Of a stretch of 64,000 nt of DNA, positions 12,835 to 32,201 are shown piece by piece. The notes beneath the pieces were generated by a model. It saw nothing but the letters and a program-made list of their open reading frames with translations. It did no database searches and was not told the origin of the DNA. Location: NCBI GenBank assembly GCA_965250305.1, contig CBDFNS010000023.1, positions 105,346 through 169,345 on the forward strand, in the 5' to 3' direction. Within the stretch, counting starts at the first letter, position 1. Every line of letters begins with the position of its first letter. The DNA comes from Candidatus Multivoradales bacterium. Lineage in GTDB: Bacteria > Acidobacteriota > Thermoanaerobaculia > Multivoradales > J023. Position numbers and translations under genes: made by a program.

Positions 12835-14177
12835 CGACCGCCGAAGTACCAACGGAGTTCGATCAGGGCGCTGCGACCATCGGTGTTGGCGGCAAATCCC
12901 GATTGCGCCGCGGCCGGACGGTCCGCCTCGAGGTCGAGCAGCTGAACCCCGAGGCGGACGCTGTTGCGGATCTCCCAAAAGGCAGCCAGGGTCCAGGCGG
13001 TGCCGTCTTCCGTGTTGGTCTCGGCATCGGTGAAATCCTGCTCGACGGTCTCAAAACGGTCATAGCGAACCGTGATCCGGAAGCGGGCGTTGTGCCACGA
13101 CGCCAACAGGTAGCTCGCTTCGATATCGGCCTCAGCGCGGGTGCTACCAAGGATACCCATGCCGGTTTCGCCCGTGAGGAACTCGCCCACTACATCCCAT
13201 CGGGGGCTCGGGTGCCAGGTCACGCCCAGCAGGTCGATCCGCGTGCGCCAAGCGTACTCTCCGCCATGGAGCGCTCGGTCGCCGCGCGTGTCGAGATGGG
13301 TCGCCTGTATGGTCAGGGCTTCGGGTCTGACAAATCGTAGGAAGCCGCCCAATCCTGGACGACCGTCGAGGTCGCTTCCGAACGGCTGGCTTCCGTCGTC
13401 TCTTTGCGCGCGGAAGCCACCGGTGGTGAGCGAGTCCAAGGGCGGCAGGGGAACCACCTCGCCGAGCCCCGTCAGACGGTCGCCAAAGCTCCAGCCACGC
13501 CACGCGAGCAGCGCGCCGCTAGCATCGTTGCCGGCGAAGCCGATCGCACCGATTTGCAGCGAGTCCACCGATCCGAGGGCGAAGGAATAGTCCGCCAATA
13601 GGCCCGTTAACCGCACTTCTTCCGCGATCCAACTGTTGATCGCGGACAGCGTCACGGTGTAGGGCGAGGCCCACGCCGACTCGACGTTTTCCTGCGAAGT
13701 CGGTGGCAAGAAGTAACCCAAGCGCAGGCGAGCGCGGTCCGCATCGCGGAGGGTGGCCTGGCCTTCCACATACACTTCGACCAATCCGAAGCTGTCGCCG
13801 CCATGGTCGCTGGGTTCCGCACGTCCGAAGCCATGAATGTAGGCTAGGAAGTGCTCGTTCGGTTGCCACTCGAGCGCCGCATGGAGCTTGCCGGTGGCGA
13901 TCTCATCTTCGGCTCCGACCGCGTTGGCGCCCAGATCCAACCGACCGAAGCTGCCGGTGAGCCACGAGGCCCGGCTCTCGACGGCCGTGGCCCGCCCGGC
14001 CACGAAGCCGAAGAAGTTGAGTTCCTGCGCCTGCGCCACAGGTGGACTTCCGTAAACGAGCGCCGCCAATCCGCCGAGAAGCAGGGCTCCGATTGCGTGG
14101 TGTGAAGACACCCTCCGATGGCCACGAGATCGACCGTGGGGTGGCTTCGCTCCTTGGGGGATTGTTGACGCTGACAT
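12831..14177 (-). CDS. putative outer-membrane beta-barrel protein
   Basis: Signal peptide (..HHAIGALLLGGLAALVYGSPPVAQAQE), then alternating amphipathic beta-strand pattern rich in G/Y/W/R; start chosen at MSASTIP. Confidence 0.45.
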   Translation of the reverse strand: MSASTIPQGAKPPHGRSRGHRRVSSHHAIGALLLGGLAALVYGSPPVAQAQELNFFGFVAGRATAVESRASWLTGSFGRLDLGANAVGAEDEIATGKLHAALEWQPNEHFLAYIHGFGRAEPSDHGGDSFGLVEVYVEGQATLRDADRARLRLGYFLPPTSQENVESAWASPYTVTLSAINSWIAEEVRLTGLLADYSFALGSVDSLQIGAIGFAGNDASGALLAWRGWSFGDRLTGLGEVVPLPPLDSLTTGGFRAQRDDGSQPFGSDLDGRPGLGGFLRFVRPEALTIQATHLDTRGDRALHGGEYAWRTRIDLLGVTWHPSPRWDVVGEFLTGETGMGILGSTRAEADIEASYLLASWHNARFRITVRYDRFETVEQDFTDAETNTEDGTAWTLAAFWEIRNSVRLGVQLLDLEADRPAAAQSGFAANTDGRSALIELRWYFGGR

Positions 14178-14249
14178 GGTGGTCCGATTCGTCTGGCGGC
14201 ATATGGTGTCGTACATGAGGAGGCGGTTACCACATCGTTCCGAGGGTCC

Positions 14250-15076: not shown

Positions 15077-17374
15077 TTGGGTACCGGCTATACTCACCGT
15101 CTCCCTGGAGCATTGGTGGAAAATCATCTGATTCTGGCGTTTTTTGGTGTGGCAGCAATCGGCGTGGTGGCGAGTCTCGCGTTGTTCGACCTCTTCAGGG
15201 CTGAAACCGTGCGCGCTTCGTGGTCCGATTGGCTAAGCTTCGAGCCGGACGAGCTCGGTGGGTACGCACCCCGTACCTTGGTACTCGCGAGCGTGTTGGG
15301 TCTGTTCGTCGAGTTGCTCTTGATTCGGTGGGTTTCGTCCGAGATACGCATCTTTGCGTACTTCAAGAACTTCGTGCTGATCGCTTGCTTTCTCGGTTTC
15401 GGCCTTGGTTTTCACTTGTGCCGGCGGCGAATCAACCTCCTGCCGACGATGGTGCCGCTGGTGTTGCTGTGTCTGCTGGTTCGTCTGCCCTGGGAACCAC
15501 TGCGCGAGCTGGTCGCCCTGTTGCCTTCGTGGATCGGCTCCTTCGCGGAGGTCCATATGTGGGGTGTACCGGCGGTCGATGCGACCGGCGAGGCGCTCGC
15601 AGGTTTGGCAGCGGCGATGGTGATCTCGGTGCCGCTGTTCGCCATGATCGCGCTGGTGTTTGTGCCCTTCGGCCAACTGACGGGCTGGTTGATCGAGCGG
15701 GCCCCCAACGGCATCACCGCCTACTCGATCAACGTGCTGGGGAGCCTCGCCGGCATTCTCCTGTTCACCGGGTTGGCCTTCGCATCGCAACCGCCCGCCG
15801 TTTGGTTTGCCATTGCGGGCGCCTTGTTTGTGGTGTTGTTTTGGCCCAAACCCCGGTTGCGGTGGGCTGTTGTTGTGGTGTTCGGCATCTCCCTCGGGCT
15901 GTTTGCCGTCGGCCGGCCAGGTGAGGGGATCGAGGTCCATTGGTCGCCGTACCAGAAACTTGCCGTACAGCCGCAGGTCGTGGATGGCGAGACCATATCG
16001 TACGCCCTCGAGACCAACGACAGCTGGTATCAGTGGGTGATCGACCTGTCGCCCGTCTTCCTCGCGCGTCACCCAGAGCTTCTCCGCAGCGTGCCGATCG
16101 AGCGCAATGCCTACAACCTGCCCTACCGCTTCGCACCCGCGCCGGGTTCGGTCTTGGTGCTCGGTGCCGGCATGGGCAATGACGTTGCCGCCGCGCTGCG
16201 CAACGATGCCGGACGGGTGACGGCGGTCGAGATTGATCCGACCATCGTCAGGCTCGGCCGGCGATTGCATTTCGAGAAGCCCTATGCCGATCGACGGGTC
16301 ACCGTCGTGGTGGACGACGCGCGCAGCTATATCCAGAACGCGAAGGACCGTTTCGATCTGATCGTTTTCTCGCTGCTCGACTCCCATACTACGGCATCCC
16401 ATTTCTCGAACATCCGCATCGACAACTACGTCTACACCGTCGAAGCGCTGCGGGCCGCGCGCGAGCTATTGGCACCTGATGGGGTGTTTATCGTCAAGTT
16501 CCAGGTCGACCAAACGTGGATCGCCGCCCGTCTCCGTGCGCTGCTCGAAGAGGCGTTCGGCGCCCCGCCGCTCCAATTCGAAGCTGAGGCCACCCACACA
16601 ACCGGCGGCCGTTTCTTCGTCGCGGGTTCGGCGTCACGGATCGCGGCCGCGCGCAGCGATCCAGCGTTCGCCGCGTTCCTCATCGAGCACACCCGCCACG
16701 ACGGGGCGGATGCTGCCACGGGTCGGATTACGCGCACCACCGATGACTGGCCTTACTTCTACCAACACGCGCCGGGCCTACCGGCTGCCGTGCTGGTCAT
16801 CTCGGGCATCCTCGCCATTGTCGTGTGGCTGGCCGTGGGTCGTACGGGTTTGCGGGGTGGCGCAATCCGCTGGCATTTCTTCTTCCTCGGCGCGGGATTC
16901 TTGTTGGTCGAGGCCCAAGCGGTCAGCAAGATGGCGCTTTTGTTCGGCACCACCTGGCTGGTCAACGCGATCGTCATCGCCGGTATTTTGTTGTTGATCG
17001 TGGCTGCCAACCTGCTGGTCGAGAAGGGACCGCGCATACCGGTGAACGTTGCCTATTCTGGCCTCTTCGCTTCGCTTCTCGCGGCATACTTGATTCCCGT
17101 CGACTGGCTGCTGGTGGACGCGGTCGCGCCACGGATCGCCCTCGCGACCCTTGTGCTGTGCACCCCAGTCTTCTTTGCCGGCATCGTCTTCATCACGGGT
17201 TTCGCCCAAGCCGGTTTCCGCGGCGACGCCCTCGGCTCCAACCTCTTTGGTGCCCTGCTCGGTGGCCTGACCGAGAGCATCTCGCTATGGACAGGCCTGC
17301 GGTCCCTCCTCCTCGTCGCCGCCGCGCTCTACGCTCTTTCGTGGTGGGTGCGGCGGAGCGACGTCGAGCGGTAG
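15077..17374 (+). CDS. polytopic membrane protein fused to a spermidine-synthase-like (PABS) methyltransferase-fold domain
   Basis: About 7 N-terminal and 5 C-terminal TM helices flank a soluble domain with GxGxG (VLVLGAGMGNDVAAAL) and acidic DLIVFSLLDSHT motifs, as in aminopropyltransferases. Confidence 0.6.
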   Translation: MGTGYTHRLPGALVENHLILAFFGVAAIGVVASLALFDLFRAETVRASWSDWLSFEPDELGGYAPRTLVLASVLGLFVELLLIRWVSSEIRIFAYFKNFVLIACFLGFGLGFHLCRRRINLLPTMVPLVLLCLLVRLPWEPLRELVALLPSWIGSFAEVHMWGVPAVDATGEALAGLAAAMVISVPLFAMIALVFVPFGQLTGWLIERAPNGITAYSINVLGSLAGILLFTGLAFASQPPAVWFAIAGALFVVLFWPKPRLRWAVVVVFGISLGLFAVGRPGEGIEVHWSPYQKLAVQPQVVDGETISYALETNDSWYQWVIDLSPVFLARHPELLRSVPIERNAYNLPYRFAPAPGSVLVLGAGMGNDVAAALRNDAGRVTAVEIDPTIVRLGRRLHFEKPYADRRVTVVVDDARSYIQNAKDRFDLIVFSLLDSHTTASHFSNIRIDNYVYTVEALRAARELLAPDGVFIVKFQVDQTWIAARLRALLEEAFGAPPLQFEAEATHTTGGRFFVAGSASRIAAARSDPAFAAFLIEHTRHDGADAATGRITRTTDDWPYFYQHAPGLPAAVLVISGILAIVVWLAVGRTGLRGGAIRWHFFFLGAGFLLVEAQAVSKMALLFGTTWLVNAIVIAGILLLIVAANLLVEKGPRIPVNVAYSGLFASLLAAYLIPVDWLLVDAVAPRIALATLVLCTPVFFAGIVFITGFAQAGFRGDALGSNLFGALLGGLTESISLWTGLRSLLLVAAALYALSWWVRRSDVER

Positions 17375-17384
17375 GCGTCCTGCC

Positions 17385-18146
17385 TCAGTGACCGCGCTTG
17401 TTGGACGTTCGCTTGCGCCGCCTGGATTCGGGAGCGCGACGACCCCATGCGTAGACAACGAGGGTCACAGCAAGCAGCGCGGCAATGCCGGTGAACGCGC
17501 GACGGTAAATACTTCGTCGTTGAAGTTGGCCGTCGCAGGCTTCCAGTTGGCGGTCATATAAGGCGGCACGGGCGGCGACCTTTTCGGCGACCTTCAGCAG
17601 CCAAGGCTTGGCGAGATGACTTCCGCGAGCATAGCCGGCGGGCCCTTCGTGATAGGCCAAGTAGAGGTTGTAGGCATCGCTGGTTTCGATCCCCGCCCGT
17701 TGGTGAATTTCCCGTCCATACCAGCCGACAAAATCGGAGACGTCCGGAAAGTGGCGTCGGCTCGCGCGCGGGCCCGCGACACGCCGTTGATAGTCTCGCC
17801 AGGTGCCATCGAGTGCTTGGGCATAGCCATAGGCTGACGAGGGCCGGCGCCAAGGAATCACGCCCCACAGCATCCTGCGTGGTGGTCGCGCTCCCGCTCT
17901 AAAGCTCGACTCTTGGAAGAGGATCGCAAGCTGGACCGCTACTGGGACCTTCCATCGTTTCTCAGACCGCCTCACGCTGCGGTACCAACCCGACTTGTCC
18001 ATCAGGAGGGTGCAGACATCGCCGGATACGCTCGGTGGCGCCTCATGCCAACGAAGGAGCGCGACACCGAAGAGAAGCAGAAAGCCCGTGGCGAGAATCG
18101 GTCCGAGGAATCGAGGGAACCGAGGGAACCGAGGTTGGCGGACCAT
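17385..18146 (-). CDS. membrane-anchored SLT-domain (lytic transglycosylase-like) protein
   Basis: TM anchor after a PRFPRFPRF repeat; catalytic-Glu region LAILFQESSFR and AYGYAQALDGTW resemble SLT family motifs; ATG overlaps the stop of the upstream gene (TGATG). Confidence 0.5.
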   Translation of the reverse strand: MVRQPRFPRFPRFLGPILATGFLLLFGVALLRWHEAPPSVSGDVCTLLMDKSGWYRSVRRSEKRWKVPVAVQLAILFQESSFRAGARPPRRMLWGVIPWRRPSSAYGYAQALDGTWRDYQRRVAGPRASRRHFPDVSDFVGWYGREIHQRAGIETSDAYNLYLAYHEGPAGYARGSHLAKPWLLKVAEKVAARAALYDRQLEACDGQLQRRSIYRRAFTGIAALLAVTLVVYAWGRRAPESRRRKRTSNKRGH

Positions 18147-20068
18147 CACGGAGACGTCGGATTCCGCTCCACCATCAGCAAGCGATCGACCGCCTCGACC
18201 TCGACCGCCTGGTTGGTGCCGTCGGGCCAAGTGACCTCGAGTCCTGTGACGGTGGCGGCCTTGCCCAGGCCAAAGGTCACGGTAGGCTCGGATTGGCTCT
18301 GGTAGCTACGGTTGGGCATGACGGCCCGGCGCTGGCGACGGCCGTCGTCGGTCTCGAGGGTGATCCAGGCGCCGATGGCGTCGATGTTGGGGGCTCGATC
18401 GACCAGGCGGATTCGCAGCCAGTGGTTGGCGAGGGCTTGGTCATTGCGCAACACCAGGGCACGGCGACCAGTTTGGGTCAGGACGACGTCGAGGTCGCCG
18501 TCGCCGTCCAAGTCGGCGGTGGCACTACCGCGTCCCACTACGGCCTGGCCGAGGTCACCGGCGGTGGTCAGATCGACCGGCTCAAACGTTCGGCGGGCTT
18601 CGGGGCCGGCGTTCCAGAACAGCTGTGACGGCTGGGCGTACGTCTGGCTCGGATCGACGGTGTTGATTTCTGTTTCCAGGTGACCATTGGTTTGGATCAG
18701 GTCGAGGCGGCCGTCGAGGTCGTAGTCGAAGAACAGCACACCAAACGACAGGACTGCGCGACTCGATGCGCCAATGCCTTCGGTAATCGCCTCGTCGGCG
18801 TAGAGGGTTCGGTCACCCTGTGCGACGTAGAGGGAGGTCATTTCGTTGGCGAAATTGCCGATCGCGAATCCGAGGTCACCATCGTTGCGCAGGTAGCCCG
18901 CATCGATGCCCATGGCACCGGTGGCCTCACCCTCCCGGCCGTAGGCGATGCCCCATAGTTCGCCCACTTCGTCGAAGGTGATGGCGTTGCCGTTGGTGGT
19001 GGCGGTACGGTTGTGGAACAGGAAGTTCCGAACCGTATCGTTGGCCACGACCAGATCCATCCAGCCGTCGCCATCGACGTCGATGGGTGCGACCGCCAGC
19101 GCCTTGCCGACCGGGACTCCGGAAGCGTTGTTGCGTACGTGCAGCCCGGCTGCTTCTGAGATGTCGGTAAACGCGGGGTTGCCACCCGGAGCATCGAGGT
19201 CGTTGCGATAGAGCGCGCTGAATGAGCCTTGGTAGTTGGCGGGCGGTCCGTAGGCTCGGCCAACGCCGGTCAGTTGGTAGTCGATCTCGAAGTCGATCGC
19301 GCGCGACCAACGGACGTAGTTGCCAACAAAGAGATCGAGGTCGCCGTCGTTGTCGGCATCGAAGAAGGCGCACGAGGTGCTCCAGGCATCGTCGGAGCCT
19401 GCGACACCCGCGGTATCGCTAACATCTTCGAACCGGCCGTGTCGGTTCATCAACAACCGGTTGCTGCCAACCGCGGCGACGAAAACGTCGCGCCAGCCAT
19501 CACCGTCGACATCGGCCGCGGCAACGCCTGTTCCGTAGATCCCAAGGGCCAAGCCGGCTTCGATCGTGGCATCGGTGAATTGCAGGTTGCCCGCGGCGTC
19601 CGTGCCTTGGTTGCGGAAAAAACGGCTGGAGATGTTCTCCGCTCCGGCTGTTGCCGTCCAAGGACGACCGTTGATCAGCAGGATGTCGATGTCGCCGTCG
19701 TTGTCGGCGTCGAATAGGGCGACGCCGCTGCCCATACTTTCGGGCAGCAGCTTGTCGCCGCCTGCCCCGTTCTCGTGTGTGAAGTCGATCCCGGCCGCGG
19801 CACTGATCTCGGTGAAGGTTACGGTGGGTACCGTGGCCTCGGTGGCGGGAACGACGGCCACTGGCGCGGCAGTCTTGATCGTTTGTTCGGGCGTTGCCTC
19901 ATCTGGGCGCCGCATGACCGCAACCACCACCAATACGACCACGGCCAGCGCGACCAGCGCCATCAAAGACCGGCGAACGGCAACGCCGATAACGGCGTCG
20001 TCAGCGTGTGCGAGGTCATCCGAGTGCGCCGGGTTCGACTGGGTTTCTGCTTCCGGTGGGTGGTTCAT
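18146..20068 (-). CDS. CRTAC1-family protein (FG-GAP/VCBS repeats + ASPIC-UnbV C-terminal domain), membrane anchored
   Basis: Repeated FDADNDGDxDL motifs; C-terminal ..LGLGKAATVTGLEVTWPDGT.. UnbV/ASPIC signature; N-terminal TM; start ATG 20068 overlaps the stop of the TPR gene (ATGA). Confidence 0.8.
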   Translation of the reverse strand: MNHPPEAETQSNPAHSDDLAHADDAVIGVAVRRSLMALVALAVVVLVVVAVMRRPDEATPEQTIKTAAPVAVVPATEATVPTVTFTEISAAAGIDFTHENGAGGDKLLPESMGSGVALFDADNDGDIDILLINGRPWTATAGAENISSRFFRNQGTDAAGNLQFTDATIEAGLALGIYGTGVAAADVDGDGWRDVFVAAVGSNRLLMNRHGRFEDVSDTAGVAGSDDAWSTSCAFFDADNDGDLDLFVGNYVRWSRAIDFEIDYQLTGVGRAYGPPANYQGSFSALYRNDLDAPGGNPAFTDISEAAGLHVRNNASGVPVGKALAVAPIDVDGDGWMDLVVANDTVRNFLFHNRTATTNGNAITFDEVGELWGIAYGREGEATGAMGIDAGYLRNDGDLGFAIGNFANEMTSLYVAQGDRTLYADEAITEGIGASSRAVLSFGVLFFDYDLDGRLDLIQTNGHLETEINTVDPSQTYAQPSQLFWNAGPEARRTFEPVDLTTAGDLGQAVVGRGSATADLDGDGDLDVVLTQTGRRALVLRNDQALANHWLRIRLVDRAPNIDAIGAWITLETDDGRRQRRAVMPNRSYQSQSEPTVTFGLGKAATVTGLEVTWPDGTNQAVEVEAVDRLLMVERNPTSP

Positions 20069-21108
20069 GAGCCCGTGCCCGCGTCGCGGCTGCGCATGTT
20101 GCGGGCTGCTTCGGCGGTCTTCAGACGTTCCTGGATCGAACGGAAGAGTGCCTGGCTGCGTCGATGCCACTCGTCGGCCGTGAAGCGATCTGCTGGGGCA
20201 CTGAGTGCCACGACCCCCGAACCGCTGGCTTGGTTCGAGACCTTGACGCGCAAATCACCCCAAATCAAGGCCCAACTCTCGGTGGCTTCGATCGTAGGAT
20301 CGAAGGCCATCTTCTGATCACGAAGCGCGTCGGTCACGGCGTCGATCAGTTGGCGGTCGCCAGTGGCATAGCGGACGGGAAATGCCGCTTGGACCTGATG
20401 CGCACCGGTTGGCGGTTGGTAGGTATCTGTGGTCATGAGTTGTAGGAAGGCATCGAGGTGGAAGAAGCTGAATTTGGCATCGCCCCGAACGCGAAGGCGC
20501 AGGCGCTCGTCGGCGGCGAAGGCTTGTTCCAGGTAGCGGATCATCGGGTCGATGGCGCCGATCAACGCGTAGTTCGAGGCCACCTGGAGGGCTGACTCGC
20601 CGCGACCGGGGTTGAGTGCCAGATAGCGTGAAAAGTGAGCCTCGGCCTCGTCGCGGCGTTGGAGAAACAACAGGACCGCACCCAGATTCAGCTCGTTGTC
20701 GGGGGCGGCTGGGTCGAGTTTCTTGGCCTCGCTCAGGGCTTGATAGGCCGCGTCATAGCGTTCGAATGCCATCTCGGCAGCCGCCAGGTTGAGCCAGCCT
20801 TGGCGCAGGGAAGGGTCCAGCTTCAGGGCTTCGCGCAGGTCGATGACACCAATCTCATGATCGCCGACCATGAAACGCGCCGTGCTGCGCAAGAACAAGG
20901 CGCGGGCGTTCGGCTTCCCTCGCCGCAGGGCGTTGTCGAGCTTCGCCAGGGCCTGCTCCGGGGCGCCACGGTCGAGGAGTTGCTGCGCCTCGTCGAGAAT
21001 GCGTTCGGCCACGGACGCGAGCGATCCCGTTGCCAAAAGGAAGCCCGTCAGCACGATGCCGACGGGTAGGAAAAGACGTTTGGTTTGAGAACGATCGTTG
21101 CGCTTCAT
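20065..21108 (-). CDS. secreted TPR-repeat protein
   Basis: Signal peptide (LFLPVGIVLTGFLLATGSLASVA) and several 34-aa TPR-like repeats (..ALFLRSTARFMVGDHEIGVIDLREALKLDP..). Confidence 0.7.
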   Translation of the reverse strand: MKRNDRSQTKRLFLPVGIVLTGFLLATGSLASVAERILDEAQQLLDRGAPEQALAKLDNALRRGKPNARALFLRSTARFMVGDHEIGVIDLREALKLDPSLRQGWLNLAAAEMAFERYDAAYQALSEAKKLDPAAPDNELNLGAVLLFLQRRDEAEAHFSRYLALNPGRGESALQVASNYALIGAIDPMIRYLEQAFAADERLRLRVRGDAKFSFFHLDAFLQLMTTDTYQPPTGAHQVQAAFPVRYATGDRQLIDAVTDALRDQKMAFDPTIEATESWALIWGDLRVKVSNQASGSGVVALSAPADRFTADEWHRRSQALFRSIQERLKTAEAARNMRSRDAGTGS

Positions 21109-21238
21109 GGATTTCCGCTGGGTTGAGCCGCGAGGTGGATCCGGGGCGTCAAGTATGCCGCACGGCCTGGCGTTTGGCCAGAATGGAGCCGAGCGCGTGT
21201 TGGAAGGTGGTCTGGTGACGACCCAGGTGGCCTTTCGC

Positions 21239-24200
21239 CTACCGCGATGTGCCTACGTCCCCCGTTTCGTCGAGGATTGCCAGGCGTTTGCGGGCCAGCT
21301 CGAAGGTCGATACCGCTGCGTAGGGATCATCGTCCGGTTCGTCGATTCTCCGGTAGTAGGCGCGGGCGGTTTCCAGTAGGCCGTAGGTTTCCGCCGTGCG
21401 GCCGAAGACGAACCAGTCGTCGGAAGTGACCTGCTTGTCGGGCCGTAGTGAGATGGCCTGTTGGACAATTCGATTGGCTTCTACGGGGCGATCCATCTGG
21501 GCGTAGGCGGTTGCCAGGGTATGCAGGGTGGCGTCGCTTTGGTAGCCCTCGAGTCCAGCGCCTTTTTGGGCGAGCGTCAAGGCCTGCTCGGGGTCGGTGT
21601 CTTCGAAAAGAAGGAACCAGGCCCACTGGTTGTAGTCGACGGCTTCCCGGTCGCCCGTGGGAATGGCCTTGAAGGCCGCAATGGCATCGGCGAAGGCGCC
21701 ACGTGATTGGGCGAGAAGTGCCTCGCTACGGGCCGTCGCTGGGTCGTTCGGCAGACGTTTCTTTCGCTGCTCGATCAGTGTCTCAGCGGCGCTCCAGCGC
21801 TCGGCTTGCAACAGTGAGAGCAGTTGGCCCTGGAACACCGTTTCGGAGGTTGGATGGGCTTTCAGCATCGTCGATGCGACAGCTTCGAGCGCTTTGCTGT
21901 CGTCGCTGATGAGGGTGGCCTGCAAGATCGCCAACTGGAGCGCTTCCTGGCGGTTGGTGTCGTCCGTGATCTTGGTCAGCGCCGGTTTCAGGATGGCCAA
22001 CGCCGCTTCGGCGTGGGCGGCGTCGGTCATCAGCGTCGCTGCAGCAACCCGCATATCGTCAGCGGACGCCTCGTCCGTGGTCGGCCACAGTCGGGCGAAG
22101 GGATGGAATCCGAACGGGTCCTCGGTCTGGATTCGGGTGATCGCTTGCTCGGCCCAATCGAGCCATGTGGCGGCCGCGGCGAACTCGCCCGTGTCGATCA
22201 GTCGGATGGCCTCGGTGCCGAGACCTGCCAAGAGTCGATCACCGGCGACCATTTTGGGCTCCCCGTTTCGCATGCCGAAGAACGTGGTCCAGGGCTCGGC
22301 TGATGGGTCGAGCGCTGGTGTCATCTGAATGCGGTACCCGGTCTCGTCGTCACCGTCGATCTCATCGGTGGTGAACGACTGCACACCGATGTCGAAGAAA
22401 ACAGGGTCAGGCAATGCGCCGGGATTGATCGCCGGATCGCCGCGTAGCGTTTCGAGCGCGATTTGTAAGCCGACCTCGGTAGCGTCCCAGGCCGTTGCCA
22501 AGCTCTCGGCAACCAAAGGCCGTGAACGCTCGAGATCGATTGGGTGCCCCATGAGTGAGCCCAGCAAGCTTCGGGCGGTAGACTTCGGGTCGGTGAGATC
22601 GACCTCGAGCTCCTCCGAGCGCTTGACGTTGCCGATGACATCGGCTTGGGCGAAGGTCGCAGCCGGATTTTCGGTGCGACTCGCGGCTCGCCGCAGCACC
22701 TCGCCGGATTGCGGGTAGTGACGCGTGATCAAGAGGTGTTGAGCGACTTGCTGGAGCAGCGCGGGTTGGGCTGCTTGGTTGGCCGACATTTGCTCAACCG
22801 CGCGCAGGGCCGCGGGTACACCGTCTTGCACCGCGATCGCGGTTGCGCGCACGATATTGCGTGTGTCGCTGCTCGGAAACGTCTGGTGTGCATCGGCCAG
22901 CTCAGCCCAGTGGTGGTCGTAGAAGAGTGCGGCCAGGAGTTGAGTGTCGTAGGAAGTGTCTTCACTCTCTTTGCGCAGTCGGCGGTAGATTTCGATCGCA
23001 TCACTGAGATCGGCATCAGCCCCGTATCGTGTGCCGGTACTGTCGTGCTCGAAGGCAACGGCCAGCTCCGTTGCGGCTTCTTCATCGTCCGGTGCGAACT
23101 CGGTGGCTTTTGTCAGGCTGGCGATGGCTGCCTCGCGTTGATAACCCGGACCGAATCGGCGTCCGATGTCGTCGTGTTCGAGGGTGTAGCCGTGAAGCAT
23201 GTGGGCGAACATCGATTCGGGCGCCAGTTCCACTGCTCGTGCGGTTTCCGATTGCGCCAGCTCGCCAAAGCCGGCGGCGAGAAGAACCTGGGCGTAGCGG
23301 ACCCGATGGTCGGGCTGCTCGGGTTCAGCATCGATGAGTTTGCGTGCGCCGCTGATCGCATTTTCGATGCGGCCGGCGGCGAGATCCGCCATGATGGTGT
23401 GATCGAACCAAATGGATGGCAACTCGGCCTGGCCGATCTCATGGAGTCCGCTGCGAAAGGCGGTGATCGCCGCCGCATTGAGTCGCCGGGGTCCGGTATC
23501 GAACACCATTTCGACGTGAACCACACCGTCGTCGTCGGCAAAATAGGCCATGGTGAACGAGCCGGTGCCCAATTCCCATGCCCGGTCGGCTGGCAGGTCC
23601 CGCGGCGTCATGCCGCTGGCGGGCCGGATCGTATAGCGGAGCACGGATCGGTAGGGGTCGTACAGCACCAGGTCCGACTCGCGAGGGTCGATTTCTTCGC
23701 CAAGGTCATCGATCAGAGCGCTTGGAAGATCTTCGAACAAGGTGCCAAATCCGAGTACCACGATGGCCTCGCGAAGGTCGCTCACCACCGAGCCGACGCC
23801 CTCGCCCGCCATCCGTAACGTGAAGGGCTGGTCGAGATCGTCGGGCGGCGACCATTCGACGTCGGTGAGCTCAGCGTCGCTGTAGGTGGTGGCGATGTAG
23901 CTGGCCAAGCCCTCGCGGGTAGATTCCGGCGTCCAGTCACTGGTGACCGTCCGCATGCTCTGTTCCGACGATCCGCGATAGACCGTGGTTTCGATCACGG
24001 AGCCATCGCCGTAACTCGTCAATTGGATCTCGCGATGTTCGATAGTGCCGTTGGCGCTCGACGGGGCAACCGGGGTCCGCTCCAACTCGGTGGCGTTCGT
24101 GTGCACGACCAGGGCGTACCGATCCTGATCGGGAAGGGGTAGCTCACCTGCACGCGCGCCAGGGTGAGTTGGGTCGACCCATACGGGTGATGACCCCATG

Positions 24201-25399
24201 ATCTTGACGATCGCGTGATCGAATCGGCCCAAACCCGGCAAGGTTGGGTCGACGTCGACTCCCGGCCCGGTTAGCAGCAAGGCAACGTTTGCTTCGATGC
24301 CCAAGGCGCGCAACATGGCGACCAACAGCGTTGCCTTGTCCTTGCAGTCGCCGTAACTGCGCTCGAGGGTGGTCGAGGGGGCCGCGGGAATGAGACCGAA
24401 AGCGCCGAGCTCGAGACCGGTGTAGCGCACTTGATCATGAAGGTACGCGAGAACACGCGCGATGGTGTCGGCGGTCGATTCGTCTCGACGCTCGAACCCT
24501 TCGAGAAGCTGCGCCGATTCCGCGTCTGCGAGTAGTTGTTCCACAACCTCATGGTAGGCGCGGGCAACGGAGCCCCAGCTCTCCCCGGTGGCGAACCCTA
24601 CGTGTACCCAGCGAGGCTCGTCCGACGGCCGCCCTTCTTCCCACGGGATCTCATCGGTCATCGAGGGGTGGTCCACGTCGAACACCCACACCACCCGGTC
24701 GTCGTGTTCTTCCTTGGTTGGCGCGAGGTCTTCGGTGCCCCGAACCTCGAAGCGAAAGGGGACGCTTTGCGGGACATCAATCGTCAGTCGTTGGCGTAGT
24801 ACCGGCGAGGTTGACTCGATGTTGATGCGCGAGGACAGTCCTGCGTTGAAGTACGGCTTTTCGTCGTGGACGATTTCTTCAGCCACCACCACGGCACCTT
24901 TGACGACACCAGGGAGCGGGCCCTCGAGAACGAGCTCATCCTCGAAGATGGCGTCTCCTTGGTCACCGTTTGGACGCTCACTCAGGGTCTTGGGATCGAG
25001 TCGATACTCTTTGCCCGCAGGGGTCACAATGCGGTAGCGCAGCTCTGGTCGGCTCTGCATCCAGGGCCGGTAAATTCGGTTGGCTACGCTCCAGTCTTCA
25101 ACCCCTTGTGCAGTGTGAAGGTAAATGACGGCGCGGAACAGGCTCGTCTTGCGGCCGGGCTCGTGGAAGGTCTGGATGTACTCACGCCAAAGATAGACGG
25201 CGTCGGCGTCTTCGACATCGGGGGCAGCCTCGGCGGCAGCGGCCAGCAATGTTGTGGAGTCGACGGCGAAAAGGTCGATGTCCGGCCACGGGACGGTCGG
25301 CTTGTCGGCACCTGTGGAATCACCAGCGGCGACCTGAGGGATCCAGATCAGACCGAGTGCCAGGAGACGAAAAAGAAGAGAAAAATAGTGATGCGTCAA
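21239..25399 (-). CDS. large (1386 aa) DUF3857 / transglutaminase-like cysteine-protease-fold / DUF3858 protein with C-terminal TPR repeats, secreted
   Basis: Transglutaminase-like core SYGDCKDKATLLVAMLRALGIEA; signal peptide THHYFSLLFRLLALGLIWIPQVAAG; start assigned to TTG 25399 because a perfect AGGAGA sits 5 nt upstream (tctcct at 25405-25410); the ATG at 25480 lacks an RBS. Confidence 0.8.
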   Translation of the reverse strand: MTHHYFSLLFRLLALGLIWIPQVAAGDSTGADKPTVPWPDIDLFAVDSTTLLAAAAEAAPDVEDADAVYLWREYIQTFHEPGRKTSLFRAVIYLHTAQGVEDWSVANRIYRPWMQSRPELRYRIVTPAGKEYRLDPKTLSERPNGDQGDAIFEDELVLEGPLPGVVKGAVVVAEEIVHDEKPYFNAGLSSRINIESTSPVLRQRLTIDVPQSVPFRFEVRGTEDLAPTKEEHDDRVVWVFDVDHPSMTDEIPWEEGRPSDEPRWVHVGFATGESWGSVARAYHEVVEQLLADAESAQLLEGFERRDESTADTIARVLAYLHDQVRYTGLELGAFGLIPAAPSTTLERSYGDCKDKATLLVAMLRALGIEANVALLLTGPGVDVDPTLPGLGRFDHAIVKIMGSSPVWVDPTHPGARAGELPLPDQDRYALVVHTNATELERTPVAPSSANGTIEHREIQLTSYGDGSVIETTVYRGSSEQSMRTVTSDWTPESTREGLASYIATTYSDAELTDVEWSPPDDLDQPFTLRMAGEGVGSVVSDLREAIVVLGFGTLFEDLPSALIDDLGEEIDPRESDLVLYDPYRSVLRYTIRPASGMTPRDLPADRAWELGTGSFTMAYFADDDGVVHVEMVFDTGPRRLNAAAITAFRSGLHEIGQAELPSIWFDHTIMADLAAGRIENAISGARKLIDAEPEQPDHRVRYAQVLLAAGFGELAQSETARAVELAPESMFAHMLHGYTLEHDDIGRRFGPGYQREAAIASLTKATEFAPDDEEAATELAVAFEHDSTGTRYGADADLSDAIEIYRRLRKESEDTSYDTQLLAALFYDHHWAELADAHQTFPSSDTRNIVRATAIAVQDGVPAALRAVEQMSANQAAQPALLQQVAQHLLITRHYPQSGEVLRRAASRTENPAATFAQADVIGNVKRSEELEVDLTDPKSTARSLLGSLMGHPIDLERSRPLVAESLATAWDATEVGLQIALETLRGDPAINPGALPDPVFFDIGVQSFTTDEIDGDDETGYRIQMTPALDPSAEPWTTFFGMRNGEPKMVAGDRLLAGLGTEAIRLIDTGEFAAAATWLDWAEQAITRIQTEDPFGFHPFARLWPTTDEASADDMRVAAATLMTDAAHAEAALAILKPALTKITDDTNRQEALQLAILQATLISDDSKALEAVASTMLKAHPTSETVFQGQLLSLLQAERWSAAETLIEQRKKRLPNDPATARSEALLAQSRGAFADAIAAFKAIPTGDREAVDYNQWAWFLLFEDTDPEQALTLAQKGAGLEGYQSDATLHTLATAYAQMDRPVEANRIVQQAISLRPDKQVTSDDWFVFGRTAETYGLLETARAYYRRIDEPDDDPYAAVSTFELARKRLAILDETGDVGTSR

Positions 25400-25545
25400 A
25401 ATGATCTCCTGAGGATTTCGGGAAGAGAAAATCGCCTCGATTATGGTGGAATAGCGTGCTTCTGTCACGATCGGGCGCATAGAGGGTCACGAATCAGGTT
25501 GGCAAAGAGCGTCGCGTTCGGGTCTTCTCGATACTCACCGGTACA

Positions 25546-26643
25546 ATGTCCCGTGTGACGACACCAAGCCCAACACCGACACCGAAGCAAGTCGCCGCCG
25601 AGCTGGGCAACCGGGTTATTGGACAGGAAGAGGCGATCACTGAGATGGCCATCGCCTTGGCCAAGAAACTGGCGGGCCTGACCGTCGGGAATGTTCTGAT
25701 GATTGGCTCGTCCGGCACCGGCAAGACGACCTTGATGCGAGCCGTCGAAGGCTATCTTGGAGAGCATCCGGAGTTGCCGCTGCGGCCGGTCGTGGTGCGG
25801 ATTCACGCCAACGTGTTGGGCGAGGAGGCCGAGCGTGGCCGGCCTGGCGAAGTGGTCTTTGGGCGGTTACTGGATCGTGCTCGGGAACAGCTGGGTGCCC
25901 ATGTCGACCTGGCGACGCTTCTCGACCATGCTGCCAAGGGCATCGTCTTCGTCGACGAGGTCGACAAGATCCGATCTCACGTGGGTGGTCAGGTCAACAC
26001 GGCGGGCATTCGCGCTCAGGAAGCCCTATTGACGGTGATCGAGAACGAGGCCGTACCCTTGACGCTGCCGCCGTGGGCGGGGGGAGAGACCGTGACGGTG
26101 GACTCGAGTGGCTTGCTCTTCGTTTGCGGAGGTGCGTTCGAAGGGCTCTACGACGCCGTCTTCGACCGCGTGACCGTGGGACGCGACCGTGGCGCGCTCA
26201 AACCGGTTACGGTGGTCGAGGGTGGGCGGGTCCAAGAACGACTGGAGTTCCGGCTCGGTGACTGGCTGCGCAACGAAGATCTTTTTGACTACGGCATGAG
26301 TCCTCAGTTCTTGGCTCGCTACGACGCCGTGGTGCTTCTACACGATCTTGCCGTTGACCACTTGGTCAGGATTTTTTTGGAAATACCGGATTCCAGCTTT
26401 CACCAGGCACGTGCGTACTTCGAGAGCCGCGGGACCCGATTGGCGCTTTCGCCTGGTGCGGTGCGACGGATCGCACTCGAAGCCTCGCGGGCTCCACGGC
26501 TCGGCGCGCGCGCCCTAAAGGAGGTCTTTCGAAGGGTCATACGCCCCTACGAGTTCGCGCCCGAAGACCACATGAGCGATACAGGGGCCGTGATGATCGA
26601 TGTTGCGGAGGTCGAAACGGCACTCGGCGCCACGGCCTCCTAA
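25546..26643 (+). CDS. ClpX/HslU-family AAA+ ATPase lacking the N-terminal zinc-binding domain and GYVG pore loop
   Basis: Walker A GSSGTGKTT; Walker B GIVFVDEVDKI; ClpX-like blocks QEALLTVIEN, LLFVCGGAFEGL, sensor-2 region ARALKEV; the GYVG pore loop position reads HANVLGEEAERGRPGEV. Confidence 0.75.
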   Translation: MSRVTTPSPTPTPKQVAAELGNRVIGQEEAITEMAIALAKKLAGLTVGNVLMIGSSGTGKTTLMRAVEGYLGEHPELPLRPVVVRIHANVLGEEAERGRPGEVVFGRLLDRAREQLGAHVDLATLLDHAAKGIVFVDEVDKIRSHVGGQVNTAGIRAQEALLTVIENEAVPLTLPPWAGGETVTVDSSGLLFVCGGAFEGLYDAVFDRVTVGRDRGALKPVTVVEGGRVQERLEFRLGDWLRNEDLFDYGMSPQFLARYDAVVLLHDLAVDHLVRIFLEIPDSSFHQARAYFESRGTRLALSPGAVRRIALEASRAPRLGARALKEVFRRVIRPYEFAPEDHMSDTGAVMIDVAEVETALGATAS

Positions 26644-26671: not shown

Positions 26672-27544
26672 TTGATGAAATCCCCTCTTCTCCGGCTGTT
26701 GAAACGTTGTCCGCCCCTTTTCAGGCTCTGCAAGTGGTTGCTGTGGGAACGGCACAAACTAAGCGATTGGGCGAGCACGCATCTATTCAAGCGAACGCGT
26801 CGTGTGTCGACCCCGCTCGGCTTCGACATGGTGTCGGGAAGGTTTATCGCCAACCGGATGATGTTGGATGGCACTTTCGAGCCCGAAGAGGTTCGGATCA
26901 TCACGGAGACCTTGCCGGATATTGATGTCTTCGTCGATATTGGGGCGAATATTGGTTATTACGTCTGCATGGCACGTGCGCGCGGCAAGCACGTGGTTGC
27001 GTTTGAGCCTCAACCACAGAATTACAGTCACCTGCTGCAGAATCTCGCCATCAACGGCTGGGCCGACGTTGAAGTGTTTCCATGTGGTCTCGGTGCCGGT
27101 ATCGACGTTGTCGAGTTGTACGGATCGTCGGGCCCTTCAGCGTCGCTGATCAAGGGTTGGGCCGGATACGCATCGGGGTACCGGCAACTGATCCCGGTGA
27201 ATCGCCTCGATAACGTACTGGGCGGACGATTCACGAACAAGCGCTTGTTCATCAAGATCGACGTCGAAGGTTTCGAGTACTTCGTTGTACAGGGTGGGCT
27301 CGAAATCGTGCGGCGCAACCCAAAGCCCGTCTGGCTCATCGAAATATGCTTGAACGAGTTCCACCCTTCGGGGATGAACCCACACTACAAGGACACCTTC
27401 GATCTGTTCTGGCACAACGGCTACCAGATCTTCGCATCCGACGGGGCGGGCACCGAAGTCACACCGGAGATGGTTGACCGTTGGGTCGACGACAATCTCT
27501 GCGATCTCGGCGTGTTCAACTATCTGATCAAGCCTGTAGCATAG
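26672..27544 (+). CDS. FkbM-family SAM-dependent methyltransferase
   Basis: FkbM signature VDIGANIGYY ... IKIDVEGFE; moderately lower GC than neighbours. Confidence 0.75.
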   Translation: MMKSPLLRLLKRCPPLFRLCKWLLWERHKLSDWASTHLFKRTRRVSTPLGFDMVSGRFIANRMMLDGTFEPEEVRIITETLPDIDVFVDIGANIGYYVCMARARGKHVVAFEPQPQNYSHLLQNLAINGWADVEVFPCGLGAGIDVVELYGSSGPSASLIKGWAGYASGYRQLIPVNRLDNVLGGRFTNKRLFIKIDVEGFEYFVVQGGLEIVRRNPKPVWLIEICLNEFHPSGMNPHYKDTFDLFWHNGYQIFASDGAGTEVTPEMVDRWVDDNLCDLGVFNYLIKPVA

Positions 27545-27563: not shown

Positions 27564-28325
27564 TTACCGGAGGGCGCGCTGGGCTACCAAATCGCGGTAT
27601 CGCCGACGACGTTGGCGGCCGTCACGCCAGGACGGGATCGCGCTGGTGGCGCCGAGTAGGATCCAGACGACCAGCCACCAGAGGCCGATCATGGGGCGTT
27701 CGTCGCTCCCCGCCATGGTCATGCGGGCCGAGAAGTAGGTGTGCATGACCGTCGTCGGTACCAGGCCTATGGCCGTCGAAGCCAAGAAGCGAGACGTGCG
27801 TACCCCAGCGAGAGCGGCACCGAAATTGATCAACGCAAACGGGACAGGCAGAAACCGAGTCTGGACCAGTGGCCAGAACCCGCGACGATCGAAGACCCGC
27901 TCGGCCCTACGCAGCCGGGGGCCGGTCAGGTGGGCGACGGCATCACGCCCCAGTAGACGGGCGACAATGAAGCCGGTGATGGCGCCCAAGAAAAGACCAC
28001 CGAGGTTGATCAGTGAGCCCCAAAGGGTGCCAAACACCGCACCGCCGCCGATCACGAGGGGGCTGACGGGCATGCCGATCGGCGCGATCACGGCGTAGGC
28101 AGCGATCAGCAGCAGTGGTGCGTACCAAAGGCCGCGCAAGCGCGAGAGTACGTCCGTAACGTTTTCTTGGGTCAGCTGAGAGGCGATCGGCGGCCAGCGA
28201 AGAAGGAGCAAGCCGCCGACGACGATGGCGAGCAACAACAGGCCACGCACCACATAGCGAAGTGGGAGCGTCCGTAGCGCGGACAACACCCTCTGCAGGC
28301 CGCTACGCGGTTGGTCGATCGTCAA
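27564..28325 (-). CDS. TVP38/TMEM64 (DedA/SNARE-associated) family membrane protein
   Basis: Polytopic membrane protein with a conserved G-rich re-entrant region (PIGMPVSPLVIGGGAVFG) typical of DedA/TVP38. Confidence 0.7.
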   Translation of the reverse strand: MTIDQPRSGLQRVLSALRTLPLRYVVRGLLLLAIVVGGLLLLRWPPIASQLTQENVTDVLSRLRGLWYAPLLLIAAYAVIAPIGMPVSPLVIGGGAVFGTLWGSLINLGGLFLGAITGFIVARLLGRDAVAHLTGPRLRRAERVFDRRGFWPLVQTRFLPVPFALINFGAALAGVRTSRFLASTAIGLVPTTVMHTYFSARMTMAGSDERPMIGLWWLVVWILLGATSAIPSWRDGRQRRRRYRDLVAQRALR

Positions 28326-28582
28326 GTGGGCTCGCCTGGACTGTCGAGGGCCAGGAACTCGCGCAGGTGTTTGGTGAGCGTGGGTAGTGACTCTGGATCC
28401 ATGAAGTTGAGGCGCAGTTCATTGATCACCATGACTTCGGCGTCGAGCCATGCTTGCCAGCAGTCTTGGCAGGACTTGGTGCGGATGTCGGTGCCGAGCC
28501 CGCCGCCGTAGGTCACACCCTCGGCGGGTGGCGCGGTGTTCCCGCAACGGGCGCAGACGATGGCCTGGGAGGAATCGGACAC
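28322..28582 (-). CDS. YggX-like Fe(2+)-trafficking / oxidative-damage protection protein
   Basis: 86 aa; CxxC...C plus W-rich core and VMVINELRLNFMDPE, closely paralleling E. coli YggX (..TMLINEKKLNMMN..). Confidence 0.75.
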   Translation of the reverse strand: MSDSSQAIVCARCGNTAPPAEGVTYGGGLGTDIRTKSCQDCWQAWLDAEVMVINELRLNFMDPESLPTLTKHLREFLALDSPGEPT

Positions 28583-28772
28583 GATGATCTCCTGGTTTGG
28601 GCTATTCGCCGGGCAAGATGATGTTGCTTTTCGCGCGTTCAGCTAGTTCGCGCGGGAATGACACCAGCGCGTAAACCCGCTCACGTTTTTGGGCCGGTCC
28701 GCGGAGCGCCTTGACGGCCTCATCGGGTACGGAACTCTTCGAGCTTGTCGTCGAGCTTGCTCACTGGTTTTC

Positions 28773-29762
28773 CTAGGCTGTTCCCGTGGTCTGTTCCGCG
28801 AGCAGGTTCCGGAAGTATTCGAGGGTCTTGCCCAGGCCTTCATCAAGGGGAACCCGTGGCTCCCAGTCGAGGTACTTTTTGGCGAGAGTGATGTCAGGTT
28901 GACGGGTCTTGGGGTCGTCGACCGGTAGCGGCTTGTGTTCGATCGTGCTCGTGCTTCCCGCAAGATCACGAATGTGCTCAGCGAACTGAAGAATGGTCAT
29001 TTCGTGTGGGTTGCCGATGTTGACCGGCAGCCCGTAGTCGCCCTTCAGCAAGCGATAAATGCCCTCTACAAGGTCGTCGACGTAGCAGAACGAGCGGGTT
29101 TGGTCGCCGTCTCCGAAGACGCTGAGTGGCGTACCGGTCAGGGCCTGCTGCATGAAGGCCGGGACCACACGTCCGTCACGAGGCCGCATGCGAGGGCCGT
29201 AGGTGTTGAAGATCCGAACGATGCGTGTCTCGACCCCATGGACGCGGTGGTAGGCCATGACCATGGCTTCGCCAAAGCGTTTCGCTTCGTCGTAGACACC
29301 GCGCGGACCCACCGGATTGACGTTGCCCCAGTAGGTTTCCGGCTGGGGATGTACCAGTGGGTCGCCGTAGACCTCGGACGTCGATGCCAGCAGGTAACGC
29401 GCCCCCTTGGCTTTGGCCAACCCGAGAGTGTTGTGGGTACCGAGTGAGCCCACCTTGAGCGTTTGGATCGGCAGCTCGAGGTAGTCGATCGGGCTGGCGG
29501 GCGAAGCGAAATGGAGCACGTAGTCCACCGGCCCATCGATCTCGAAGGGAATCGAGACATCGTGCTCGAGAAGGCGGAAGTCATTACGCCCCTCGAGGTG
29601 CGCGATATTGCGGGGACGGCCGGTGATGAAGTTGTCCACACACACCACGCGGTGTCCGCTCTCGAGCAGTTTCTCGCACAAATGAGAGCCAAGGAATCCG
29701 GCTCCGCCGGTTACCACCGCTGTTGGTTGGCGCTCATCGCCCTGATCGTGTGTGGCCATCAA
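28773..29762 (-). CDS. UDP-glucuronate decarboxylase (UDP-xylose synthase)-type NAD-dependent epimerase/dehydratase
   Basis: [11 protein letters not shown] Rossmann motif; YDEAKR catalytic YxxxK; high similarity pattern to UXS/ArnA decarboxylase domain. Confidence 0.85.
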
Positions 29763-31090
29763 CTTTCCCCTTGGTCGCTTGGTTGTCCCTCAGGGCGACC
29801 TACCGAAATGTAGTGGAAGCCTGCGGCTGCCATTTTCTCTGGCTCGTAGATGTTGCGTAGGTCGATTACCAGCCGCTTGGTCAGCAGGCCAGCGAGTCGG
29901 CTCAACTCGAGGTGACGAAACTGGTTCCACTCTGTCGCGATGACCAAAGCATCGGCCCCCGCCGCAGCGTCGTAGGCGTCTTCACAGTACACCACATCAG
30001 GATAGTCATCACGGCAGGCGTCCATCGCTTCGGGATCGTGGGCGCGCACCGTGGCGCCGCCAGCGAGCAGGCCTTCTACGATCGGCAGCGCGGGTGATTC
30101 GCGGATATCATCCGTGTCAGGCTTGAACGACAATCCGAGGACAGCTACGGTTTTTCCATCTAGGGAGCCGAGGGCGCCGCGGATCTTGTCCAGCATGCGG
30201 GCCTTGGTGGCATCGTTGGCCTCCAGAACCGCTTCGATAATGCGGAACGTCAATCCTCGGTCGGTTGCAATCTGGGCGACGGCCCGGGTGTCTTTGGGGA
30301 AGCAAGAGCCACCAAAACCAGGGCCTGGGTGCAAGAACTTGGGTCCGATCCGAGTGTCCAGTCCCATGCCGCGCGCGACCACCTCCACATCGGCCCCGTA
30401 GGCTTCGCACAGCGCCGCGACTTCGTTGATGAACGAGATCTTGGTTGCCAGGAAGCCATTGGACGCGTATTTGATCAGCTCGGCGCTCTCGACGTCCGTA
30501 ATGACGAACGGCACATTGGCGACCCGCAGCGGCGAGTAGATGTCCAGCATCAGCTCGATCGCGCGGGGGTCACGTGTGCCGAGCACCACCCGATCGGGGT
30601 GCAAGAAGTCATCGATCGCCGAACCTTCGCGCAAGAACTCGGGATTCGAGACCACGGCAAAATCTTGGTTGCCTCCTGAGTGCTCGGCAACGATCTCTTC
30701 GACCATTTGACCGGTACCGGTGGGGACCGTGCTCTTGGTCACGATGGCCTTATACCCATTCAGGTGCTGACCGATCGAAGCCGCAACCTGTCGTACGAAA
30801 GTCAGGTCCGCAGAGCCGTCGGGTCGAGGCGGTGTTCCCACCGCGATAAAGACAGCCTGGGCCGCTTCGATCGCGGGGCCGAGGTCGGTGGTGAACTGAA
30901 GCCGGCCGGCTTCCATGTTGCGGTGCACGATGCCCCGCAGCCCCGGCTCGAAGATCGGAATCTCGCCAGCGAGCAGGCGCTCGATCTTGGACTCGTCCTT
31001 GTCGACCCCCGTGACTTCCATGCCGAAATCGGCAAGGCAAGCCCCGGTCACCAGGCCCACGTAGCCGCTACCTACTACACAAATTCTCAT
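29759..31090 (-). CDS. ugd: UDP-glucose 6-dehydrogenase
   Basis: N-terminal GSGYVG Rossmann; catalytic Cys region [10 protein letters not shown]; typical UDPGDH length (443 aa). Confidence 0.9.
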
Positions 31091-31181
31091 CGGGCTGCCC
31101 TATCCGCCGTGCGCGTTTCGCCGTCTCGTCGGTGCGGGCGGGACGTCGTTGATTGGGAATGAAATGCCGCGGCACCGCCGA

Positions 31182-32153: not shown

Positions 32154-32201
32154 TGAGATTCGGATCGCTTCGTCGTATCGCTGGTTGTGGTCTCGGTGCC
32201 C

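Follow-up and report, generated by a model that had tools for sequence, protein, structure and literature searches.

We analysed a window of 64,000 nucleotides (nt) of contig CBDFNS010000023.1 from Candidatus Multivoradales bacterium, and focus here on four co-directional minus-strand open reading frames (ORFs), read from the sequence, that lie within positions 17385-25480 and follow one another in the order giant transglutaminase-like gene, TPR gene, CRTAC1-like gene and SLT_4 gene (Table 1). From comparison with relatives, the conserved unit at this locus appears to be the TPR-CRTAC1 pair, with the giant gene and SLT_4 as variable add-ons. An earlier reading of the letters of this DNA, which we refer to as the original prediction, had taken the four genes for a dedicated operon encoding one envelope machine. 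Its description of the layout is exact, including the two stop/start overlaps (ATGA, 4 nt, at 20068-20065 between TPR and CRTAC1, and TGATG at 18148-18144 between CRTAC1 and SLT_4) and the 130 base pairs (bp) between the giant and TPR genes, the sole gap among the four. The TPR/CRTAC1 overlap is found again in two relatives, L082 and L168, and is thus no chance feature. The claim that the genes are translationally coupled stands for the last three. The locus is flanked on one side by a convergent gene for a spermidine-synthase-like methyltransferase of 765 amino acids (aa) and on the other by a divergent AAA+ gene.

Table 1. Features of the four-gene locus and its divergent neighbour, in window coordinates.
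Feature	Position	Strand	Remarks
SLT_4 gene, lytic-transglycosylase-like protein	17385..18146	-	253 aa; predicted N- and C-terminal transmembrane segments
CRTAC1-like gene, CRTAC1-family protein	18146..20068	-	640 aa; predicted cytoplasmic tail, transmembrane anchor, FG-GAP calcium-blade beta-propeller and ASPIC/UnbV domain
TPR gene, predicted haem-free exported TPR protein	20065..21108	-	347 aa; 4-5 TPRs and a conserved non-TPR C-terminal domain
Intergenic region	21109..21238	-	~80 bp nearest TPR (21109-21188) conserved upstream of TPR in L082
Giant gene, predicted secreted DUF3857/transglutaminase-like/DUF3858-like head and ~720-aa TPR-like solenoid	21239..25399	-	Pfam, structural model
Giant ORF, mechanical call	21239..25480	-	in-frame TTG at 25399-25397 gives 1386 aa
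AGGAGA Shine-Dalgarno sequence	25405..25410	-	5 nt before TTG 25399; read from sequence
Sigma-70-like promoter candidate, GTGACA-17-CATAAT	25440..25468	-	10/12 matches; inside the annotated N-terminal extension
ClpX-like AAA+ ATPase without zinc-finger domain	25546..26643	+	divergent; PDB ClpX match, 1.6e-25

Export or membrane signals are present on all four products by hydropathy, which supports the earlier view of them as an extracytoplasmic set, and a Pfam scan returns the domains that had been named from the translations (DUF3857, Transglut_core, TPR, FG-GAP/ASPIC and SLT_4).

The CRTAC1-like protein matches FG-GAP_3 in four stretches (92.2 bits) and, at its C terminus, UnbV_ASPIC (74.9 bits; cut-off 23.4 bits), and thus has in common with the CRTAC1/ASPIC/UnbV family both the calcium-blade propeller and the ASPIC/UnbV domain. 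Its propeller carries six invariant clusters of aspartates of the calcium-blade type (for example, D120/122/124/126/128 and D519/521/523-G524-D525), for which a Dx[DN]xDG-type motif has been defined (PMC3123361). Hydropathy places an N-in transmembrane anchor at residues 25-57, and the cytoplasmic motif ahead of it, DDAVIG..RRS (residues 17-35), is invariant across 40 orthologues. Homologues number in the thousands at 55-74% identity, and those at 58-60% bear the NCBI name 'CRTAC1 family protein'. Vertebrate cartilage acidic protein 1 (CRTAC1) has an EGF-like domain, whereas the Pfam scan finds none in the window protein, which, of the two, is alone in having the N-terminal cytoplasmic motif, the transmembrane anchor and an operon with a TPR gene. 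The literature that we searched (on DUF3857, ASPIC/UnbV, bacterial CRTAC1 and transglutaminase-like periplasmic proteins) holds nothing functional for bacteria; one paper describes CRTAC1-family genes located between hydrazine-synthase-like haem subunits.

The TPR protein matches several TPR families in Pfam, has an N-terminal signal or anchor by hydropathy and contains no cysteine. Its family is small, with 62 representatives at E ≤ 1e-30 among 1.84 billion.

Translated from the in-frame TTG, the giant protein has a Sec-type signal peptide by hydropathy, matches to DUF3857 (89.5 bits over residues 82-244; cut-off 24.6 bits) and to Transglut_core (PF01841; 35.6 bits over residues 299-374; cut-off 23 bits), and weak Pfam matches to TPRs. 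DUF3858, which the original prediction also named, has no Pfam match within residues 400-700, even at E ≤ 1, and comes into view through structure: the AlphaFold model of residues 1-660 (predicted local distance difference test (pLDDT) score 89.3, predicted template modelling (pTM) score 0.87) has as by far its best PDB match in Foldseek the protein 3KD4 (BDI_1141 of Parabacteroides distasonis, a 'putative protease'; E 2.3e-30 over 603 aligned columns), and the superposition spans all three domains with a template modelling (TM) score of 0.71 normalised to the 505-aa target. Judged from this model, DUF3858 of the giant protein would be recognisable by fold only. A sequence profile of the giant family also matches 3KD4, at E 7.4e-9; a plain sequence search of the PDB found nothing for the giant head alone, and profile and fold searches were needed. 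The two proteins have in common the DUF3857-transglutaminase core-DUF3858 head, that is, a beta-sandwich, a papain/transglutaminase-like core and a second beta-sandwich, but are 14% identical, and only the giant, from an Acidobacteriota-like genome, continues into a TPR-like C-terminal solenoid of ~720 aa.

The Cys-His-Asp triad of the transglutaminase core is intact. Cys352, the only cysteine among the 1386 residues of the giant protein, is invariant together with His395 and Asp409 in alignments of 32 and 40 homologues, and in the model Cys352 sits at a helix N terminus, His395 opens strand 395-400 and Asp409 follows strand 406-408, which would correspond to the canonical helix-N-terminus and adjacent-strand positions. 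The above-cut-off profile match and the invariant triad are shared with the transglutaminase-like superfamily (PF01841), whereas the combination of a secreted DUF3857 head and a long TPR tail is unlike the architecture of any characterised member. Makarova, Aravind and Koonin reportedly predicted in 1999 that microbial members of this superfamily are cysteine proteases. AAA+/transglutaminase operons of the MoxR-DUF58-TgpA type were considered as an analogue and set aside because the AAA+ protein here is ClpX-like. More than 790 full-length homologues of ~1370-1400 aa share 32-39% of their residues with the giant protein; most are annotated as 'DUF3857 domain-containing protein', and they come from Thermoanaerobaculia and other Acidobacteriota.

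The public call of the giant gene (P0001, 1413 aa) starts at ATG 25480, ahead of which there is no purine-rich stretch or Shine-Dalgarno sequence. The original prediction had preferred TTG 25399, and the AGGAGA that it placed there is exact, which makes that start plausible. The 27-codon extension between the two starts has a GC content at third codon positions (GC3) of 59%, compared to 73% over the whole giant gene, and homologues are mostly 1370-1400 aa long; an N-terminal alignment of homologues does not discriminate between TTG and ATG because their N termini are variable. On these sequence features a start at TTG 25399 is likely, and the public annotation of the gene start is probably wrong. 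The promoter candidate inside the extension is the sole match of a sigma-70 scan in 9 kb, where ~1.4 are expected by chance, so that its placement is suggestive and statistically not significant.

The SLT_4 protein has a strong Pfam match (227.2 bits; cut-off 27 bits), and across 46 sequences E79 is conserved in at least 90% while S80, C45 and C204 are invariant. A sequence search of the PDB returned nothing for it. In its structural model (pLDDT 89.3), Glu79-Ser80 falls at the end of helix 69-80, and the 49 best PDB matches are all lytic transglycosylases (probability 0.92-1.0), although these matches are weak (best E 2.3e-3, TM 0.4-0.5). The model thus weakly resembles the goose-lysozyme-like helical fold of the family-1 lytic transglycosylases (Slt70, MltE, MltF and phiKZ gp144), with which the protein also has a helix-ending Glu-Ser motif in common; it differs from them in belonging to a separate Pfam family, in its conserved Cys45/Cys204 pair and in the membrane segments found at both ends in the window clade. 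That clade has an extra C-terminal transmembrane segment with a polybasic tail (residues 213-253), in place of which many other family members carry an N-terminal lipoprotein signal. Judged from the models, both the giant head and the SLT_4 protein look like functional enzymes.

To see which of these genes belong together, we compared the locus with those of relatives, selecting ORFs in high-GC loci with GC3 weighting. The closest is L082 (NCBI GCA_041156705.1; TPR 73%, CRTAC1 74% and SLT_4 62% identical to the window), in which the divergent AAA+ gene starts directly upstream of TPR-CRTAC1-SLT_4 and there is no giant gene. Bases 1-91 of L082 align to window positions 25600-25528 and bases 133-230 to positions 21183-21095, that is, on either side of the giant gene, which on this alignment appears to be an insertion/deletion difference between the two genomes. 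Insertion by a mobile element was considered and rejected, as there are no flanking direct or inverted repeats and the GC content is not anomalous. What looks like a gap in the window would then contain ancestral sequence from upstream of the trio, and in L082 this sequence falls within the sole stretch able to hold the promoter of the operon.

Other relatives vary further. L168 has the divergent AAA+ gene (79%) and TPR-CRTAC1 (TPR 55%) alone, with neither the giant gene nor SLT_4, and an SLT_4 gene behind CRTAC1 is found only in the window and L082. The syntenic locus L165, identical to L085 in this region, shares more than ten genes with the window (including MlaEFD, two epimerases, UDP-glucose dehydrogenase, a small Iron_traffic protein, VTT/DedA and the AAA+ gene) but has the order TPR-CRTAC1-giant, with identities of 70% for AAA+, 53% for TPR, 62% for CRTAC1 and 34% for the giant. 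In L084, CRTAC1 (59%) overlaps a downstream giant gene (37%) by 4 nt, and in L088 CRTAC1 (59%) is followed after a 41-bp gap by the most similar giant gene (39%). All four genes occur together in the window alone; the locus is a variable cluster and not a fixed four-part machine. Since the giant gene recurs beside CRTAC1 in three arrangements, these data suggest a real but looser functional link between the two rather than a fixed operon.

We also scanned species genomes for giant-family genes with the family alignment (a scan with the giant protein alone found nothing). Around the giant genes of 80 species genomes, there is no TPR or SLT_4 homologue within 10 kb, and a CRTAC1 homologue in two (at 1e-5) or three (at 1e-3) loci; in the two that we inspected (L001 and L074), CRTAC1 does not adjoin the giant gene and is encoded on the other strand. 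Over 82 giant-family neighbourhoods, no family of neighbours is present more than 7 times. Neighbour joining places every giant that is linked to CRTAC1 in a single clade, which has 15 of the 122 leaves and also includes the unlinked P0002, P0029 and P0023, and the giant-linked CRTAC1 genes fall into two separate CRTAC1 clades; both are distance trees and carry little weight at this degree of divergence.

The ~80 bp next to the TPR start are 74% identical to L082 (63 of 85 alignment columns), which equals the identity of the coding sequence. As this stretch is conserved in a genome that has no giant gene, the TPR-CRTAC1-SLT_4 trio probably has a promoter of its own there. A candidate in the gap, TGGCCA-N17-CATACT, is weak, with 8 of 12 hexamer matches. 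Scans of the 130 bp found no terminator and no unusual RNA structure or riboswitch-like element (z = 0.30), and read-through from the giant gene into the trio is possible beside an internal promoter. Inside the TPR gene, at codons 15-22 (21044-21066 on the minus strand), lies a terminator-like 10-bp GC-rich hairpin with a T-rich run, which is probably a chance occurrence since the corresponding L082 sequence, compared by eye, differs.

The partnership of CRTAC1 with TPR proteins extends well beyond this lineage. Of the co-directional neighbours of CRTAC1 at 80 metagenome loci, 52 on the upstream side and 21 on the downstream side belong to one TPR-related cluster, and TPR-FG-GAP fusion proteins occur at L106:2939-6433, with an ASPIC domain as well, and at L149:10351-13635. 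The usual upstream partner is a protein of ~950 aa that carries transmembrane helices at its N terminus and also has a Cytochrome_C554-like region and C-terminal TPRs, and all 35 such partners contain exactly five CxxCH motifs (in L086-L164, for example L086:7093-9981; L166:7099-9933; L167:7090-9942). These pentahaem cytochrome-TPR genes pair with CRTAC1 genes of the same orthologue group as that of the window (50-65% identity) and, as in the window, the co-directional TPR-containing partner lies directly upstream of CRTAC1, often within a few bases; whereas the usual partner is ~950 aa long with five CxxCH motifs, that of the window has 347 aa and no cysteine. The short TPR protein is not supported as a truncated form of the pentahaem partner, as hhalign gives a probability of 18% and generic TPR similarity only. 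No description of the pentahaem cytochrome-TPR and CRTAC1 pair was found in the literature searched, and its sequence features suggest that most bacterial homologues of CRTAC1 have a redox-linked function. The window locus is a lineage variant, with a haem-free TPR partner and transglutaminase-fold and SLT_4 accessories on the widespread TPR-CRTAC1 module.

The divergent AAA+ gene is adjacent to TPR-CRTAC1 in L082, L165/L085 and L168 as well (70-79% identity), with outer flanks that differ, and its product is possibly an associated component of the pair. It scores 122.8 bits against the NCBIfam ClpX model, under the 359-bit cut-off, and the alignment begins at about model position 58, so that the zinc-finger region is missing; the protein has one cysteine. 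Beyond it, an FkbM-type methyltransferase gene (26672-27544, plus strand) stands between the AAA+ and VTT/DedA genes and is missing from the otherwise syntenic L165, relative to which it is a further local insertion. There follows an envelope-related block (27564-34931, minus strand) whose gene order is common to the window and L165, with VTT/DedA, a small Iron_traffic-like ORF, an epimerase, UDP-glucose dehydrogenase, a second epimerase, MlaD, an ABC ATPase (MlaF-like by position) and MlaE. On the other side, the stops of the 765-aa methyltransferase gene (plus strand) and of SLT_4 (minus strand) are separated by 10 bp (17374-17385) and there is therefore too little space for separate terminators.

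The locus is not a defence system: PADLOC assigns no anti-phage defence family to any of the four proteins. Farther out, a 945-aa CHAT-domain (caspase-like) protein (9997-12834, plus strand) gives weak PADLOC matches to BovA, and beside its gene lies a 461-aa ORF (12831-14216, minus strand) with no Pfam or NCBIfam match.

The explanation that we favour, and to which as a whole we give about even credence on the sequence evidence, is that the locus builds, in a lineage-specific way, on a two-gene envelope module, TPR plus CRTAC1, that is itself widespread. TPR, CRTAC1 and SLT_4 would form one translationally coupled unit with its own promoter upstream of TPR, and the giant gene would be a separately promoted accessory, with a TTG start, its own Shine-Dalgarno sequence and a promoter-like site, from which transcription may continue into the trio. 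The propeller of CRTAC1 would be held at the inner membrane by its anchor and serve as a Ca2+-dependent binding platform, with the TPR protein as its periplasmic adaptor; that the two may interact physically is suggested by the TPR-propeller fusion proteins of other bacteria. The giant would be a Sec-exported enzyme of the papain/transglutaminase fold with a Cys-His-Asp triad, a protease or a transamidase, whose ~720-aa TPR solenoid may recruit substrates or dock onto the module, and SLT_4 would be a membrane-tethered lytic transglycosylase that opens peptidoglycan locally around a large assembly. The whole may serve to process or cross-link proteins of the envelope or matrix; the conserved neighbourhood is envelope-related too (UDP-sugar enzymes, MlaDEF and a DedA/VTT protein).

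Several observations weigh against this explanation. The case for an internal promoter is one of sequence conservation, and the promoter scan did not pick up its hexamers; with no terminator in the gap, one long transcript is possible. The adjacency of giant and CRTAC1 genes is rare, being absent from the 80 species-genome loci and from the close giant relatives P0002, P0029 and P0023, and between syntenic loci the giant is 34% identical, compared to 53-70% for its neighbours. SLT_4 adjoins CRTAC1 in two related genomes only, and one of its homologues, at 57% identity, is found on its own. The mechanism itself is drawn from folds and context, in four families that are all functionally blank in bacteria.

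Some of these same points would be expected if the giant and SLT_4 were unrelated envelope genes that came to lie beside TPR-CRTAC1 by local rearrangement, their overlaps reflecting compact packing; we consider this unlikely, though it deserves to be taken seriously. Giant homologues usually are stand-alone genes, and their 34% identity across syntenic loci is at the background level of the family; SLT_4 homologues form a large, mostly lipoprotein family in unrelated contexts, and other insertions have occurred at the locus, such as the FkbM methyltransferase gene relative to L165. Such a history does not sit well with the immediate co-directional adjacency of giant and CRTAC1 genes in three arrangements and two CRTAC1 clades, including the 4-nt overlap in L084, nor with an SLT_4 start that overlaps the CRTAC1 stop and lacks a Shine-Dalgarno sequence of its own.

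The original prediction itself, a single four-gene operon with one promoter upstream of the giant gene and encoding one dedicated envelope-remodelling or adhesion machine that needs all four products, now seems improbable. The co-directional genes, two overlaps and only one gap, the lack of a terminator-like site or unusual RNA structure in that gap and the extracytoplasmic nature of all products are what it would lead one to expect, but neighbourhood comparison speaks against it, as co-conservation fails for two of the four genes, the giant and SLT_4. The four are together only in the window; L082 lacks the giant gene and yet keeps the sequence just upstream of TPR, L168 lacks both add-ons, the giant lies on the other side of CRTAC1 in L165/L085, L084 and L088, and across 80 genomes no gene is conserved as a neighbour of the giant family.

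Least probable of all, and in our view very unlikely, is that the divergent AAA+ gene and TPR-CRTAC1 make up the real conserved system, in which a ClpX-like unfoldase acts on the cytoplasmic tail of CRTAC1 for quality control, extraction or regulated turnover of its anchor while the giant and SLT_4 are incidental: although the ClpX-like gene is the best conserved of the block (70-79%), stays divergent in the window, L082, L165/L085 and L168 as outer flanks change, and faces CRTAC1 orthologues with an invariant cytoplasmic motif before the transmembrane segment, the association is confined to one narrow clade, is absent from the other 79 CRTAC1 loci and could amount to no more than synteny, there is no ClpP-like partner in the vicinity, and the motif is conserved in CRTAC1 orthologues without an AAA+ neighbour too.

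Returning to the elaborated TPR-CRTAC1 module, the unit worth study is TPR-CRTAC1 with or without its accessories, not a fixed four-gene machine, and of all that the locus comparison yields, the swapping of partners is the lead of most use. A bolder extension, which we hold to be improbable, is that CRTAC1 propellers stay constant at the centre of a widespread and hitherto undescribed periplasmic module whose other components are exchanged, the partner being a pentahaem cytochrome-TPR protein in most lineages and, in the window clade, a haem-free TPR protein with a ClpX-like ATPase, the giant and/or a lytic transglycosylase. If this were true, the window would represent a partner swap, in which one propeller platform serves either electron transfer or the processing of proteins and peptidoglycan, and would give a first handle on the role of bacterial CRTAC1 homologues.

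All four families are catalogued without a bacterial function, including CRTAC1 with its thousands of homologues and a vertebrate namesake. If the links described here are real, they would provide a comparative framework in which the propeller is constant while its TPR, cytochrome and enzyme partners change, and on which initial experimental work on the four families in Acidobacteriota, an abundant and poorly studied group, could be based.

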